Part shown: positions 17,747-24,295 of the stretch, piece by piece | Numbering within the stretch: the first letter of the stretch is position 1 | How the letters are laid out: the number at the start of each line of letters is the position of its first letter | Assembly: GCA_049685715.1 (NCBI GenBank) | Contig: JBAVHJ010000508.1 | Location: 1 to 41,942 of the forward strand | Length of the DNA: 41,942 bases | Source of the DNA: Terriglobia bacterium | GTDB lineage: Bacteria > Acidobacteriota > Terriglobia > JAIQFV01 | Direction: 5' to 3' | Translations under genes and position numbers: made by a program | The notes under the pieces: generated by a model | What the model was told of the DNA's origin: nothing | The model's database searches: none | What the model saw: the letters and a program-made list of their open reading frames with translations, nothing else

Positions 17747-18073
17747 GAATGGCACGAAGTTAAGAAATTCCGTCTTTCCGAGGCCTGACCAGTCTCGAGT
17801 CCGCTTCAGCGGACTTGCCTTGAGACAGCCCGCCGGTTCACCGGCGGGAAGGTGGGGAGGGAATTCTGTCAAGCCCCGATTGACGGGGACTTGGGTGGAA
17901 AATGGGCGCCCTGTTAACGGGCCGCCGGGAGACCTCAACCCCGATGAATCGGGGTGAAGGAACCGAGGCGATCCCTTCCCGCCGCTGAAGCGGCGGGCTG
18001 GTAAAAGACAAGGCCGCCGAGGCGGCCTTCGAACGAGTTCCGTCGTTCTCCAGCCCTTAACTTCGTGCCATTC
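17747..18073. repeat. 327-bp element bounded by perfect 18-bp inverted repeats and packed with seven GC-rich hairpins
   Basis: gaatggcacgaagttaag (17747-17764) is the exact reverse complement of cttaacttcgtgccattc (18056-18073). Internal hairpins lie at 17798-17815, 17829-17848, 17874-17888, 17905-17926, 17939-17954, 17978-17997 and 18010-18029. Confidence 0.55.
18002..18029 (-). terminator. Candidate intrinsic terminator downstream of the giant kinase gene
   Basis: On the minus strand an 8-bp GC-rich stem (aaggccgc / gcggcctt) with a 4-nt loop is followed by GTCTTTTA. It lies about 290 nt after the stop at 18323 and inside the palindromic element. Confidence 0.3.
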
Positions 18074-18322
18074 GCAACGGACGCTACAGGGGGGAACAAA
18101 GGCGGTCGGATTCCCCAGGCGTGGACCGGGGGGTGTGGAAGGGGAGACCAGGGCCGAGACGTCCATTGCCAACCAAGAAAATCGCTGGCGGGCCCTCGAG
18201 CCGGGCAGACCGATCAATAAAGAGTTCTCTGACTGGAATTCACAAAAGCCCTCAGAACGCACCGACGAAGCTGCCGAGTCCTCAGTCTTGATCCTGGAAT
18301 GACAAGAGGATGTCACGGCCTT

Positions 18323-21300
18323 CTAGCCACTTTGCTTTGAACTCTGACTCCCTGCGTCCAACACTTCGCGAACCCTTCGGGCCAGGGCTTCGGGAGTAAA
18401 CGGTTTTTGGAGAAAGACCATATCGGCTTCCAGGGCGCCGTGATGCAGAACGGTGTCATCGGTGTAGCCGGACATGTAAAGAACCTTAATCCCGGGTTTC
18501 ATGGGGACCAGTCGCTCTGCCAGCTCACGGCCGCTCATTTGCGGCATCACCACGTCGGTCAGAATCAAGTGAATCGTTTCCGGGTGTTGCCTGCAGCGTT
18601 CCAAGGCCTCCTCTCCCGCCGATGCCTCCAACACCGTATAGCCGTTCATTTCGAGGATATCCCGAACGAGGTCTCGGACTCCATCCTCATCTTCAACGAC
18701 AAGGATCGTTTCGGATCCATGCATGGGAGTGGTCTGTTCCGGACTTATTTGCAGGGGCTTTCCAACTTCTTCATGCCGCGGGAGGTAGACCTTAAATGTC
18801 GTGCCGCTCCCCACCTCGCTGTTAACCCAGATGTAGCCCCCACTTTGCTTCACGATTCCATAGACGGTCGACAGTCCCAGCCCGGTACCCTTGCCCATTT
18901 CCTTCGTGGTGAAGAAGGGTTCAAACAGATGTTTCTGGATCTCGCTGTCCATTCCGGTTCCAGTATCCCGGACTCCTAACACGACATAAGATCCCACATG
19001 CATCCCGGCATTCCGGCTCGCGTAGGCTTCATCGATATCCTCATTTGAAGTCTCGATGGTGAGTTTGCCTCCTTTCGGCATGGCATCCCGGGCATTGACG
19101 GCCAGGTTCATGAGCACCTGCGCCACCTGCCCTGGATCCACCTTGGTCTTTCCCAGGTGCTCGGCGCGCAGGGTGACCAATTCGATATCTTCTCCGATGA
19201 GCCGTCGAAGCATCCGATCCATATCGGCCACGACCGCATTCAAGTCCAGCAGTTTGGGCTGCAAAACCTGTTTCCGGCTGAAGGCCAGCAATTGTTGTGT
19301 CAACGAGGCCGCCCGGTCTGACGCTTTTTTGATTTCTTCGGCGTGGCGGCGGAGAGGATCCCCCAGCGGGAGGCGCATGAGCATGAGGTCTGAATATCCG
19401 GTGATGGCGGTGAGGAGGTTGTTGAAATCGTGCGCCACCCCCCCTGCCAGCCTCCCGACCGCTTCCATCTTTTGCGCCTGTCGGAGTTGTGTCTCCAACA
19501 GCTTTCGCTCCGTGACATCCTCCTGGACTGAGATGAAGCCAATCATCGTCCCCTGGGGGTTAACCACCGGGTTGACGGAAGATTCGACGGTCACCAGTTC
19601 GCCGTCCTTCCGCCGGTTGGTCATCACCCCTCGAACACTCTTTCCAGACAAGAGAGTTTTCCAGAATTGTTCGTAGTATTGAGGGGTCAGAAGTCCGCTT
19701 TTAATGATACGAGGATTCTGGCCGATGGCTTGCGCAGGGGCGAAACCGTACACCTTCTCAAAAGCGGGGTTGACGTAGGTGATGGTGCCGTCGAGCCCGG
19801 TCATGAAAATCACTTCATCAGTCTGTTCCACGGCGCGAAGCAGCCTTCGCTCCGATTCCTCAGCGCGTTTCCGAGCCGTAATGTCCCGGATGGCGACTTG
19901 GGCCGCAGGCTTATTCCTGTAAACGAAAGGGATGGCGGTGACCTCAACATCGATGACGGTGCCATCGAGCCGGAGGAACCTCTCTTCAATCAGGGGAACG
20001 CGTTCTTTGAATTCAAGCAGCGTTCCCAGCCGAGCCTCCACGACCCCTCGATGGTCCGGGTGCACTCGGTTCAGAATCGGCGTGCCGATGAGATCCATCG
20101 TTCGGTTGGCTCCGAACAATCTCATGGCCGCTGAGTTTATAAAAACGAACTTTCCTTCGCAGTGAACTACAATGGCCTCGGGCGAGAATTCGACCAGCCG
20201 GCGGTATCGTTCTTCACTCTCCCGCAAGGCCTCCTCCGCCTGTTTTTGGGCGGTAATATCGCGCTGGGTGCCCCACACACGGACCAACGATCCCTGTTCG
20301 ATGATGCCCACAAGGTTATTGAGAAAGTTCCGGGGATCGCCCTCCCGCGTGAGCTCCAAGGTCTCCGCCTCGCTCAGCCGATAGCCGGAGCGAATGAATT
20401 GGCGCAGGGTTTCAACATTCCGCTCGTCGGATCTCGGGAGCAGGTCGCCGATTCGGGTGCCAATCATTTCCTGGGCGGCGGAGAAGCCGTACAGTTGTGC
20501 CATGACATCATTGCACTCCGCCAAATAACCGTTTTGAAAGAACAGCTCGATTTGTTCGTCGATGGGGAGATGAACTGGGACGGGCGACTGTGCCTCAAAC
20601 CGCCAGATGCCTTCGGAGCTCTGCCGCACGAACGCCCGGTAGCGCTCTTCGCTTTGTCGAAGAGCATCCTCGGTCCGCTTGCGCTCAATCGCGAGGGCGA
20701 TCTGATTTCCCACCGAGGCCAGAAATTCAAGGTCTCTCTGGTGATAGGCATGGGGGTCCTTGTAATGCTGAACGACGAGCACCCCGATGGTTCCGATGGG
20801 GGTATTCAAGGGTACGCCCAACCAGGCAGGACAGGGCGTTCCGTATAGATCCACTTCGCCTTGTTCCTCCAATTGGCGGAAGTTCTTCTCGGTGAGGAGC
20901 AGGGGTTTCCCGGTGCGCAGGACATAGGCGGTGGCTGTTTTGGCGCCCTTCATCGGGACGGGAGGGGGATCGTACTGGTCGATGAAGAAGGGAAACTCAA
21001 GGATGTCCTCGTCCTTCTTATACAACGCGATGAAGCAGTTCTCCGCAGAAACAACACGGCTCAGGGAGTGATGGATCAAACGGAGCAGCTCGTCAAGATT
21101 ACTGGTTTGGTTGACCCCCGCGCTGATCTGGAAGATGACCTGGCGCTCGCACTCCGCCCGTATGCGCTCGGTGTTGTCTTCAAAGATCCCGAGGCCCGCC
21201 CGGACTACGCCGGCCACATCGCGCAGAGGGGCGGCGGAAGCGCTGACATCGACCAGGGATCCATCCTTCTTTACCCGTTGAGTTTCCATACCCGTAAAAC

Positions 21301-23896
21301 TGTGGCCCCCAATGACCTTCTTAAGCATTTGAAGATGTTCTGCTTCCTCCGCTTTCGGGATGCAGGGATTGGGTTTGCCGAGGACCTCTCGCTCAGTCCA
21401 CCCAAAGAGCTTCTCGGCGGCAGGGTTCCAGAGCAAAACCTTCCCATATCGATCCAGACTGTTGATGGCCAAAGGAGAGCCCTGGATGAGGGCCCGCAGG
21501 GTCTCATTGGTGTTGTCCAGTTCTAGTCGCGACTGTCGCCTCATCTCCTCCACCCCGATGGCCGACGCGAGCACGCTCATCACCCGCTTGTCATCCTCGC
21601 TGGGGACATAGTCTTTCTGATAGACCACACACAGCGATCCCGCGGTTTCGCCGGCAACGAACACGGTGCGGCCGACATAGGTTTTCAGCCCGAAAGCCCG
21701 CACATTCGGGTCCGTCTCCGCATAGGGAGTCTCGTCCAGATGACGCACCACCTTCACTTCATCGCGACCTTGCTTGATGATGTCAAAACAGATATGTCCC
21801 TCGGGTTTGTCCTCCGGCTTGAAGTCCGGGGGAGTACTCCATTGTCCCCAGGAGCAAAGCATTCCGTGATCAAGGCGGTTGTACAAGGCGCTGGTAGCGC
21901 CCAACAGTTCACCGCACAAGGCGGTGAGGCGATTGATGTTCTCGATCGGGTCGATTCCAAATCTTAAGAAGCACTCATTAATCTTTCGAAGTCTTCTCTC
22001 GGCCTTCTTTCGTTCGGTGATATCGTGGGCCATTCCGCGGACAACGGGGGCCTCCACTCCCTCGGTCCGAATGGTGCTGTAATATTCCCAGATGCGAGTC
22101 TCACCGCTGTGTGTCTGCGCTCGCATGAATCCGTGGACGACACCGCGGTTCTTTATGGCGGCCAAAAACGCATCAAACTCCGGTTGAGACTCGGGGGGCA
22201 GGAAATCGCGGATGTTTTTGCCGACGACTTCGTTTTGGGTATAACCCAGCACCTTGGTGGCCGCCTCGTTGGCGGAGAGAATCCTCCCTTCAAGGTCATG
22301 GGTACAGATCAAATCATGACTGTGTTCCACGAGGTCCCGGTAGCGATCCTCGCTTTCGCGCAGGGCTCTTTCCGCCTGCTTGTGTTCTGTGATGTCAGTG
22401 ATGACCCCTTCGAGGATTCCCTCATCCTCTCGCAGATTGGCGGAGATGGAAGCCCAAAATGGGGAGCCGTTGGCGCGTTTAAGTTGAGTCTCAAAGTTTT
22501 CGACCGCACCGTGCCTCAGGATTTGTGCTTTCATCCGCCCCCGGTCGTCGGGGTTCAGATACGTATCGACGGTTCGTCTCCCTTTGAGATCTTGAACTCC
22601 AAACATTTTCAGAACGGCCTGGTTGCAGTCCAGGACCCTTCCTTCGGCGAGAGAGCTCCGGTATATCCCGACCGGCGATTTGTCGAAGAAGTCCCGGTAC
22701 TTCTCTTCACTGTGTTTGAGGGCCTCAGTGGTGCGCTTTAACTCGGTGGTGTCGGTCCCCGACCCGAGGAAGCCCAGGAAGGATCCATCCGCATCGAGCC
22801 GGGGAACGCCCGAGTCCAGAATCCATCGATACTCCCCGTCGAATCGCCGGAGGCGGTATTCCATTTTGAACGGCTGACGTGCCTTGAAGGCGGTCCAATA
22901 GGTCTGTAAACATCGGGGGAGATCCTCCGTGTGAACATCCCTCGTCCAGCCGTTTCCGAGGATCTGGCTCAGGGTCCGGCCGGTGAAATCCAACCACCCT
23001 TGATTGAAAAAGGTACATAGGCCTTCGGCATCCGAAAGCCAAATCAGGACGGGTGCACTGTCGGCCATCGTCCGAAACCGCTGTTCACTTTCAACTAACG
23101 TTTCATGGACACGCTTGGAAGCAGTAATGTCGATCAGTGTTCCCTCATAGGACAATACCTTTCCCCCGCTTTCAGTGATCGCGCGGGCATGTTCGGACAC
23201 CGTGATCCGACCTCCATCCCTTTTTCTCAGCTCAAATTCGGCGTCGGTAAGTCGCCCTGTTTTATGGAGTTTTTCGAGGTTTCTTCGGCGCACGGAGGGA
23301 TCCACATACAAACTCTTTTCGATGTCGGCCTCCAGGAGCTGTTGGAGCGATTCGTATCCCAGCATCCGGATGAGTGCAGGGTTTGCACGAAGGACCTTTC
23401 CCTCCGGGGTGCTCTGGTACAATCCAATCATTGCCTCCTCGAAAAAGCTGCGGGACCGTTCCTCAGCCGCCCGAGCGGCTTCTTGGGCCGTTTTGAGGTC
23501 AGTGATATCGCGAGCGCGCCAAGTGGCAGAGCCTTTCGTTATCGGAGAAACAACGACGGAAAACCAGGTCTCCCGGTCGCCCAGCGGGAAAAGGTACTCG
23601 GCCTCGATGGTTGTGCGCTTCTTCAGGGATCGTCTCAGGTGCCCCATGATTGAGTCGATCTGGGTGAGAGGGAGAACCTCTTGCAGTGTTCTGCCAAGGA
23701 TCCTCCTGGCATTCATCTTGGTTGGGTCAGGGTTGTGCGGATAGACTTCGAGGATGCGCCCTTGCGCGTTGACGACCAGGGTCAGTTCTCTCAGGGTTGA
23801 AATCCAACTGCGACCGATCCGGGGAGAGGGCGGCGACTTTGCGGTTGCCCTCTTGTTGACCTTCGGAATTGTCTTTCCGCTTGGCTTCTTCTTCAT
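18323..23896 (-). CDS. Giant multi-PAS/GAF hybrid sensor histidine kinase / response regulator (~1857 aa)
   Basis: About ten PAS modules are separated by coiled linkers of the type ITE.K.AE.ALRESEERYR. Two GAF-like segments are present, with H-box [17 protein letters not shown], HATPase motif [20 protein letters not shown] and REC motifs ILVVEDEDGVR and LILTDVVMPQMSG. The start is set at ATG 23896, preceded by GGAGG. The ORF-track start is 23935. Confidence 0.9.
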   Translation of the reverse strand: MKKKPSGKTIPKVNKRATAKSPPSPRIGRSWISTLRELTLVVNAQGRILEVYPHNPDPTKMNARRILGRTLQEVLPLTQIDSIMGHLRRSLKKRTTIEAEYLFPLGDRETWFSVVVSPITKGSATWRARDITDLKTAQEAARAAEERSRSFFEEAMIGLYQSTPEGKVLRANPALIRMLGYESLQQLLEADIEKSLYVDPSVRRRNLEKLHKTGRLTDAEFELRKRDGGRITVSEHARAITESGGKVLSYEGTLIDITASKRVHETLVESEQRFRTMADSAPVLIWLSDAEGLCTFFNQGWLDFTGRTLSQILGNGWTRDVHTEDLPRCLQTYWTAFKARQPFKMEYRLRRFDGEYRWILDSGVPRLDADGSFLGFLGSGTDTTELKRTTEALKHSEEKYRDFFDKSPVGIYRSSLAEGRVLDCNQAVLKMFGVQDLKGRRTVDTYLNPDDRGRMKAQILRHGAVENFETQLKRANGSPFWASISANLREDEGILEGVITDITEHKQAERALRESEDRYRDLVEHSHDLICTHDLEGRILSANEAATKVLGYTQNEVVGKNIRDFLPPESQPEFDAFLAAIKNRGVVHGFMRAQTHSGETRIWEYYSTIRTEGVEAPVVRGMAHDITERKKAERRLRKINECFLRFGIDPIENINRLTALCGELLGATSALYNRLDHGMLCSWGQWSTPPDFKPEDKPEGHICFDIIKQGRDEVKVVRHLDETPYAETDPNVRAFGLKTYVGRTVFVAGETAGSLCVVYQKDYVPSEDDKRVMSVLASAIGVEEMRRQSRLELDNTNETLRALIQGSPLAINSLDRYGKVLLWNPAAEKLFGWTEREVLGKPNPCIPKAEEAEHLQMLKKVIGGHSFTGMETQRVKKDGSLVDVSASAAPLRDVAGVVRAGLGIFEDNTERIRAECERQVIFQISAGVNQTSNLDELLRLIHHSLSRVVSAENCFIALYKKDEDILEFPFFIDQYDPPPVPMKGAKTATAYVLRTGKPLLLTEKNFRQLEEQGEVDLYGTPCPAWLGVPLNTPIGTIGVLVVQHYKDPHAYHQRDLEFLASVGNQIALAIERKRTEDALRQSEERYRAFVRQSSEGIWRFEAQSPVPVHLPIDEQIELFFQNGYLAECNDVMAQLYGFSAAQEMIGTRIGDLLPRSDERNVETLRQFIRSGYRLSEAETLELTREGDPRNFLNNLVGIIEQGSLVRVWGTQRDITAQKQAEEALRESEERYRRLVEFSPEAIVVHCEGKFVFINSAAMRLFGANRTMDLIGTPILNRVHPDHRGVVEARLGTLLEFKERVPLIEERFLRLDGTVIDVEVTAIPFVYRNKPAAQVAIRDITARKRAEESERRLLRAVEQTDEVIFMTGLDGTITYVNPAFEKVYGFAPAQAIGQNPRIIKSGLLTPQYYEQFWKTLLSGKSVRGVMTNRRKDGELVTVESSVNPVVNPQGTMIGFISVQEDVTERKLLETQLRQAQKMEAVGRLAGGVAHDFNNLLTAITGYSDLMLMRLPLGDPLRRHAEEIKKASDRAASLTQQLLAFSRKQVLQPKLLDLNAVVADMDRMLRRLIGEDIELVTLRAEHLGKTKVDPGQVAQVLMNLAVNARDAMPKGGKLTIETSNEDIDEAYASRNAGMHVGSYVVLGVRDTGTGMDSEIQKHLFEPFFTTKEMGKGTGLGLSTVYGIVKQSGGYIWVNSEVGSGTTFKVYLPRHEEVGKPLQISPEQTTPMHGSETILVVEDEDGVRDLVRDILEMNGYTVLEASAGEEALERCRQHPETIHLILTDVVMPQMSGRELAERLVPMKPGIKVLYMSGYTDDTVLHHGALEADMVFLQKPFTPEALARRVREVLDAGSQSSKQSG

Positions 23897-24295
23897 GCCT
23901 GCCTCCGACCGTTTGCTGAATAGGGGTTTTACCAAAAGAGGCGGTCGTTCAGAGATGCTTGGACGGTCTCATGGGTTGAGCCTGCACACTCGTAACCTTG
24001 GCCGTCGCCATTTCATCGGGGATCTGCATCCTCAATGGTGCTTATCGACGCTTATCGGAAAAGGGTTTAGTCCCTTTATGGAGCCTTGCAAAACGCCATC
24101 GGGGAGAATACCTGCGGATTCATTCTATCGGATGGCCCACGATCACGCCAGAAAATCATTCTTAAATTGAGGGTCGATTCTTCTCCCATGCGGGCATTTC
24201 CAGGTGACTGAAAACACAATCACCGGCAGGGTCAGGGATTTCTTCTCACCACGCGGCCCCCGCCGATCGACGACTCGAGGGCAAAGAGCCATTAC

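Follow-up and report, generated by a model that had tools for sequence, protein, structure and literature searches.

A palindromic multi-hairpin element between two hybrid kinase genes: very probably a MITE with IS4-type ends and an interior from Y1-transposon ends

The locus and the architecture of the element

The window, by which we mean the whole stretch of 41,942 nucleotides analysed here, is contig C508 of the genome G000, an assembly of 5.05 Mb in 754 contigs. Two hybrid kinase genes lie on its minus strand (14331-17402 and 18323-23935), the C-terminal halves of which are 54-56% identical, and the 920-bp spacer that separates them contains a palindromic element of 329 bp (17746-18074; Table 1). 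A repeat search finds this element bounded by a perfect terminal inverted repeat (TIR), the arms of which are 291 nt apart; a preliminary description of the locus was right about perfect inverted ends, but their length is 19 nt, one more than the 18 it had given. Between these ends, seven GC-rich hairpins follow one another in mirror order, as had been described, which is borne out both by direct reading and by an imperfect inverted repeat of 55 nt (17798-17852 and 17974-18028, 80% complementary) that accounts for the mirror symmetry. The reported loops, TTCA in the left half (H1 and H2) and TGAA in the right (H5 and H6), can likewise be read directly from the sequence, and the hairpin noted near the midpoint is H4, with GTTAAC at 17913-17918. 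The compensatory change described between H2 and H6 is found in the loop-closing pair (GG..CC vs GC..GC), and both stems stay paired.

An open reading frame of 198 aa (17720-18316, minus strand) covers the element. It matches no Pfam family at E<=1, and in the orthologous copy of the sister genome its longest open stretch is 163 codons instead of 200, so that the earlier view of this frame as a by-product of the hairpins is a reasonable one. For the annotation of the locus, this removes the spurious 198-aa frame and, for the reasons given below, a candidate 'structured RNA' as well.

Table 1. Features of the element and its immediate flanks (window coordinates)
Feature	Position	Strand	Remarks
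Left flanking 9-mer, GGACAAGCT	17737-17745	.	resembles the family target GGACAGNCN; no right-side match
Left TIR, CGAATGGCACGAAGTTAAG	17746-17764	+	IS4-type end; 19-nt perfect inverted repeat with 18056-18074
Left subterminal 'shell' of type A MITE	17765-17797	+	conserved across type A copies; kept in C426:2595-2706
Left double-hairpin module	17798-17852	+	H1, spacer ending in ACAG, H2, then AAGG
H1	17798-17815		loop TTCA
H2	17829-17848		loop TTCA
H3, CCCCGATTGACGGGG	17874-17888	+	one base shorter than in sister copies
H4, central hairpin	about 17904-17926	+	centred on GTTAAC, the symmetry centre of the core
H5, CCCCGATGAATCGGGG	17939-17954	+	loop TGAA
Right double-hairpin module (H6, H7)	17974-18029	+	inverted copy of the left module
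H6	17978-17997		loop TGAA
H7	18010-18029		part of the right module
Right subterminal 'shell' of type A MITE	18030-18055	+	conserved in type A copies and the C426 deletion derivative
Right TIR	18056-18074	-	reverse complement of the left TIR; perfect inverted repeat
Right flanking 9-mer, CAACGGACG	18075-18083		differs from the left 9-mer (direct match 3/9)

A family of elements with shared ends

The genome-wide search for the termini and the hairpin units that the preliminary description had proposed reveals a multi-copy family, which we call type A; the refuting case named there, that of no other copies, does not arise. Five full copies are found in G000 and three in G001, a sister species that belongs to the same genus, as do G002 and G003. 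The four further full-length copies in G000 (C152:4627-4955, C139:974-1302, C404:2095-2423 and C351:908-1234) lie at loci with unrelated flanks; in addition, there is a truncated copy in C184 and there are many partial matches, several of them at contig ends. In pairwise comparison, the copies in C152, C139, C404 and G001:C28 are mutually 95-98% identical, the window copy is 87-89% identical to these, and C351 reaches 81-84%; the family therefore has older and younger members. A 112-bp sequence (C426:2595-2706) was considered as an 'empty shell' ancestor, but it retains part of H1 and is for this reason better seen as an internal-deletion derivative. A sequence in G003:C12 was rejected as a type A copy at only 60% identity.

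The ends are more widespread than type A itself. The 19-mer, with the consensus CGAATGGCACTAAGTTAAG, occurs about 45 times in G000 and bounds at least three types of elements, namely type A (327-329 bp), type B (393-403 bp) and type C (296 bp), the interiors of which are unrelated to each other. At no more than one mismatch, an 18-mer of the TIR is found 28 times in G000, 7 times in G001, 5 times in G002, 33 times in G003 and twice in G005, which represents a sister genus; in 35 other genomes of the class it was found 0 times, as was the reversed control. One copy of type B (C448) is common to G000, G001 and G003 and is old. The MAG is broken into 754 contigs because many repeat copies end contigs. 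At one such contig end, C223:5342-5576 of G000, the terminus forms an array of three tandem 83-bp units, each opening with a MITE end that is preceded by GGGGTCAGACA.

Target duplications and empty sites

For 28 TIR-bounded elements in G000-G003, we compared the flanking 9-mers and found a direct match of at least 7/9 in 16, which is perfect in 7, while the control 9-mers next outward never match at more than 5/9. Target-site duplications, which had been suggested as something to look for at other copies, thus exist and measure 9 bp; among type A, they are 9/9 in C139 (CGGCTGTCC) and in G001:C28 (TGTCTGTCC). We also considered whether these 9-mers might be part of a longer inverted repeat and rejected this for most copies, where they are non-palindromic and repeated in direct orientation. 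The target of types A and B is GGACAGNCN or its complement, and that of type C and of the IS described below is GGTCAG.

A comparison of G000:C39 with G001:C59 shows a clean empty site for a sister-type MITE. In G000, the order is GGAGAGACA, a type B MITE and GGACAGACA, and the flank alignments overlap by 10 nt; in G001, the MITE is absent and the site reads ...CGG GGACAGACA CCTG..., with GGACAGACA occurring once. Given this empty site, the MITE family has moved after the divergence of G000 and G001. For type A, a possible empty site lies in G002:C65.

Many of these insertions involve a second, still smaller repeat. G000 contains about 50 copies of a mini-element of 57-62 bp, here called E, with 12-bp inverted ends (GGGACAGACACC and GGTGTCTGTCCC) and several interior subtypes; examples are C404:2037-2095, C397:6303-6363, C152:4955-5013, C39:1239-1297 and C43:66-196. 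MITEs with IS4-type ends are placed exactly in its 12-bp termini (GGGACAGACACC) and duplicate 9 bp thereof, for which reason the termini of E look like a preferred target. The window copy is not adjacent to an E element.

The age of the window copy can be judged from the sister species. G001:C25 carries the element at the same locus and matches the window at 92% identity across 2.7 kb; the element itself is 93.6% identical (308/329 aligned columns; 94.2% by a separate pairwise alignment), and the spacers that flank it are 91% and 85% identical. Since the locus is occupied in both species, the window copy is an old, fixed insertion. No target duplication is recognisable around it, the flanking 9-mers matching directly at 3/9 positions: the left flank, GGACA(A/G)GCT, is target-like in both species, and the right flank, CAACGGACG, is unrelated to it. 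As the G001 ortholog has the same flanks, the duplication would have been lost or have decayed, or the right flank would have been rearranged, before the species split, and we reconstruct the insertion event of this copy from its siblings because it has no duplication of its own. At this locus, conservation in G002 and G003 is limited to the large kinase (79%), next to which lies a different gene; accordingly, no empty site is demonstrable in G001, where the site is occupied, or in G002 and G003, where synteny breaks at the kinase stop codon.

The IS4-family partner

G000 also contains an autonomous insertion sequence with similar ends. It spans 1837 bp (C78:416-2252), is bounded by CGAATGGCGCTTAGATAAG, which matches the MITE end at 16/19 positions, and encodes a transposase of 461 aa that scores 188 bits with the IS4-family model NF033592 (cut-off 115) and matches the Pfam family DDE_Tnp_1 (PF01609, 5.7e-27), with the motif YRRRWQVELFFRDIK in the translation. 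The same IS harbors a 110-aa frame of the DUF6788 family (442-774 of its locus, minus strand; Pfam 6.5e-12), in divergent orientation to the transposase gene. G002 has two 95%-identical copies of the IS, and perfect direct repeats of 9 bp, GATCTGACC and GGTCAGGGT, border them. Relatives of the transposase at 35-61% identity are found in Verrucomicrobiae, PVC, Thiobacillus, other MAGs and Verrucomicrobium sp. BvORR106, and they retain GAATGGC(G/A)C... ends as well as 9-bp duplications; its closest plasmid-borne relatives are annotated IS4-family transposases of cyanobacteria.

This resident IS differs from the type A/B end at 3/19 positions and has GGTCAG, not GGACAG, as its target, and no IS that carries the type A/B end exactly (GGCAC...AGTTAAG) turned up in the genus assemblies searched. 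The true partner of type A may be lost, or it may be unassembled, as the MAG consists of 754 contigs with many repeats at contig ends. GGCAC ends, which are those of types A and B and of the IS in Verrucomicrobium sp. BvORR106 (duplication AGACAGGCT), are found at GACAG sites, and GGCGC ends, which are those of type C and of the C78 and G002 IS copies, at GGTCAG sites. This pairing of end variants with target variants suggests two IS4-type transposase specificities.

The hairpin core and its relation to Y1 transposons

Inside the shell lies a core of about 230 bp (H1-H7), which consists of two inverted copies of a double-hairpin module of about 58 nt and three inner hairpins. The same core recurs in what we call type D, an unrelated repeat that measures about 630 bp and has inverted arms of 156 nt, and the left module of the window element aligns with both ends of the type D core. 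Solo H1-H2 modules are present, too. In G000, type D loci are C655:6292-6922, C413:1360-1962, C245:938-1534 and C348:4447-4971; type D arms are furthermore found without the core in C89, C70, C587 and C234.

Hairpins of this kind accompany genes for Y1 transposases. There are 22 matches to Y1_Tnp (PF01797) in G000 and 36 in G003, many with their own inverted flanking hairpins (e.g. G000 C345:9203-9463, C626:3955-4176 and C253:682-1095; G003:C99:1633-1974). One Y1 gene in G003 is surrounded by 12 copies of CCCAGGGC-n-GCCCTGGG, and it is this hairpin, found flanking Y1 genes, that fills the type B MITEs. For type A, the relevant gene is G003:C22:32052-32393, which has three tandem copies of the module (hairpin, CTTGATTACGTACAG, then CCCGCTGGTTTACCGGCGGG) upstream and one inverted, i.e. 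reverse-complement, module downstream; the left module of the window element aligns with all four of these flanks. H3, judged by eye, resembles the inner hairpin AGCCCCGTTCACGGGGCT that adjoins the start of the G003 gene, and H4 resembles hairpins that abut Y1 genes (GCCCGTCAACGGGC in G003:C22, GGCCGTTTTAACGGCC and GCCCGTTAAAACGGGC in G000:C253). Because the same arrangement flanks the G003 gene, the core is most likely a gene-less derivative of an IS200/IS605-type Y1 transposon, and it resembles the REPIN or 'TIRtron' dimers described by Di Nocera et al. (2013; PMC3733652).

The protein encoded by the G003:C22 gene scores 79 bits with the IS200/IS605 model NF033573 (cut-off 55); its identity as a canonical RAYT was rejected at 24.6 bits with NF047646 (cut-off 80). 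The G000 assembly yielded no Y1 gene cognate to the CCCGCCGG hairpin; the best homologue there, C253 (54% identity), shares the architecture and differs in the flanking stems. Within the genus, the hairpin is tagged with ACAG; in relatives, TCAG or ATAG takes its place. Allowing for fragmented assemblies, which may undercount, there are 24-38 ACAG-tagged hairpins per genome in the genus and 6-13 with a TCAG tag in two sister genera; the ACAG-tagged form is almost absent elsewhere in the class.

Folding and conservation of the hairpins

The element is predicted to fold with -183.4 kcal/mol on the plus strand and -185.4 kcal/mol on the minus strand, compared to means of -135 and -132 for dinucleotide shuffles (z-scores of -8.1 and -9.7), and 0/100 shuffles are as stable. 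A pattern for the hairpin unit has 56 matches genome-wide vs 0 in the reversed control. The covariation check on homologues that had been proposed is addressed by an alignment of 12 cores, eight of type A and four of type D: in the seven local hairpins, 97.2% of the cells are paired and 10 pairs are changed on both sides, whereas pairing falls below 50% when the partner columns are slid. The stems of H1 and H2 are maintained via compensatory changes, H4 differs in both partners of three pairs when type A copies are compared to those of type D, and H5 is nearly invariant in all 12 cores compared. Since the independent events are few and mainly separate type A from type D, we regard these changes as support, not as proof.

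Long-range pairing had been suggested as an alternative. With H2 against H6 and H3 against H5, it does not hold at the columns that tell it apart from local pairing: columns 47-208 can pair in 1/12 cores, whereas the local pair 47-52 forms in 12/12 (GC in seven, CG in five). A giant cruciform with long-range pairing of the two halves, as drawn by RNAalifold at default settings, was therefore rejected, and the units appear to be preserved as individual hairpins. This preservation of local hairpins fits the recognition of ssDNA hairpins by a Y1 enzyme.

Interpretation and alternative readings

We are confident, though short of certain, that the element is a type A MITE which is moved by an IS4-type DDE transposase in trans and has an interior from Y1-transposon ends. 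It combines a size of 329 bp with the lack of coding capacity, a 19/19 inverted repeat and dispersed copies at unrelated loci, and the MITE-like insertion that had been one of several initial proposals is strongly supported, given also the IS4-shared termini, the 9-bp duplications within the family and the empty site of a sister type. An IS4-family DDE transposase, acting in trans, would recognise the 19-bp ends, cut its target with a 9-bp stagger and prefer GGACAGNCN-like sites, often the termini of the separate repeat family of about 60 bp. The interior is not derived from the IS; rather, the core of about 230 bp would have inserted into a MITE or been captured by one, and the whole 329-bp unit would subsequently have been copied by the IS4-type enzyme and, in the window, would have become fixed long ago in the DNA that separates the two hybrid kinase genes. 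The data show the repeat family, the shared ends, the IS partner, the 9-bp duplications, the empty site of a sister type and the module in common with the Y1 gene flanks; as to the transposase copy that moved type A, the order of shell and core and any effect of the element on transcription, we infer.

One might ask whether the element has been recruited, and is retained, to terminate transcription between the two same-strand kinase genes or to insulate them from each other, a reading that we consider possible yet doubtful. On the minus strand, and hence in the sense of both genes, a possible terminator is made up of H7 (18029-18010, AAGGCCGCCTCGGCGGCCTT) and, after it, GTCTTTTACC; it lies 249 nt beyond the stop codon of the large kinase and, as a hairpin plus T-tract, matches a loose terminator consensus. 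Other copies are intergenic as well and lie near gene ends, and the element is kept in two species at 93.6% identity vs 91% and 85% in the flanking spacers; this excess in conservation is, however, small. Moreover, the three terminator-like sites in the region do not exceed the number in shuffles (1.3 +/- 1.3), and a separate one lies outside the element at 17648-17625. Such a role would come on top of an origin as a MITE and would not replace it. For the kinase locus, termination or insulation is the only plausible consequence of the element. The separate site, between the element and the small kinase gene (17625-17648, minus strand), consists of the hairpin CCTGGCCGGATGGTGTCGGCCAGG followed by TATTTGG.

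Given its core, the element might alternatively be a REPIN-like unit that is moved mainly by a Y1 enzyme (IS200/IS605/RAYT-like) acting on ssDNA hairpins, with the IS4-type ends as a passive relic. The inverted double-hairpin modules around the G003 gene, the 22 and 36 Y1_Tnp matches in G000 and G003, many with hairpins of their own, the occurrence of the core outside IS4-type ends in type D and in solo modules, and the wider spread of the ACAG-tagged hairpin (the genus and two sister genera) compared to these ends would all agree with this. Nevertheless, we find it improbable: the full type A copies have the complete shell and ends, and 9-bp direct duplications flank members of the family (the window copy, at 3/9, is not among them). 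Y1 (IS200/IS605) transposases are not known to produce such 9-bp duplications. The failure of the Y1 protein with the RAYT model (24.6 bits, cut-off 80) and the cognate gene not found in the G000 assembly also speak against it.

A structured non-coding RNA gene, with the hairpins conserved for RNA function, is hardly credible despite the strong predicted structure, the pairs kept via compensatory changes and a weak match to the Rfam family Acido-Lenti-1 (RF01687; 23.1 bits, E 0.0099), as this match is restricted to H6 and falls short of the gathering score (37), a search for promoter-like sites gave none, the strands fold equally, as expected for a DNA palindrome, conservation is close to that of the flanks, and the copies have transposon ends and target duplications with hairpins that are transposon-end modules and also flank transposase genes. 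An Rfam scan of the element at a permissive E-value yielded sub-threshold matches only and no other family, and an RNA family identity was rejected on these grounds.

Relation to known mobile elements

Bacterial MITEs that are moved in trans by a resident IS are known from several systems, such as RUP with IS630-Spn1, Correia/NEMIS and Nezha (PMC3733652; PMC10969869). Like these, the elements described here are small and non-coding, have terminal inverted repeats of 15-30 bp that they share with an IS, duplicate their target site (the window copy excepted), occur in several intergenic copies and have a strongly folding interior. They differ in their partner, which is of the IS4 family with a 9-bp duplication and a sequence-specific GGACAG/GGTCAG target, and in their interior, which is unrelated to the IS and built from the end modules of another transposon class. 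The element is thus ordinary mobile DNA of an already known kind, a MITE, with an unusual and instructive mosaic build. It documents an IS4-family subgroup with a sequence-specific 9-bp target and non-autonomous derivatives, and it clearly exemplifies how miniature elements of the DDE and Y1 types exchange modules, in a poorly studied lineage that the relatives of the IS would place, as a guess, in PVC/Verrucomicrobiota.

For the interior, the closest parallels are the REP/REPIN-RAYT systems, where Y1 genes flanked by repeat families are documented (PMC3733652; Bertels and Rainey, 2011, PMC3116915), and TIRtron/TIRYT, in which the Y1 gene stands between long inverted repeats that are in part self-complementary and also make up repeat families of moderate abundance (Di Nocera et al., 2013; PMC3733652). 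The hairpin module with a short 5' tag (here ACAG), the two inverted modules that flank a Y1 gene (seen in G003, not in G000), the gene-less dimers dispersed in intergenic DNA and the many Y1 paralogues per genome, each with its own hairpin, are common to all of them. By contrast to REP/REPIN-RAYT, the tag is ACAG/TCAG instead of GTAG or CGTC, the protein scores as an IS200/IS605 TnpA instead of a RAYT, there are tens of copies instead of hundreds, and DDE-type ends surround the dimer, which is moved along with them.

The Y1-associated hairpin family in type A differs from that in type B. It is conceivable, although we think it rather unlikely, that in this genus IS4-type ends are a vehicle that repeatedly captures gene-less dimers of Y1 ends and thereby gives rise to chimeras which can be moved by both DDE and HUH enzymes and home to the termini of a 60-bp repeat. 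If true, this would amount to a three-layer hitch-hiking network of miniature elements.

IS1397 and ISKpn1 insert into REP/BIME loops. The homing of IS to repeated palindromes resembles the behavior of the IS4-type MITEs, which target the termini of a repeat exactly, with the difference that here the target is the terminus of a miniature inverted-repeat element, not a REP loop. The nesting of small elements in each other is documented, as is the use of MITE hairpins as terminators; the pneumococcal elements BOX, RUP and SPRITE, for instance, insert into one another (PMC10969869). Nested forms are also seen in this genus. In G000 C604:1296-1729, another end-bearing element has split a type C element, and G003:C59:52761-53687 is a 929-bp type B element with a further inverted-repeat insert. 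The flanking 9-mers of the latter composite are inverted, not direct, probably through recombination.
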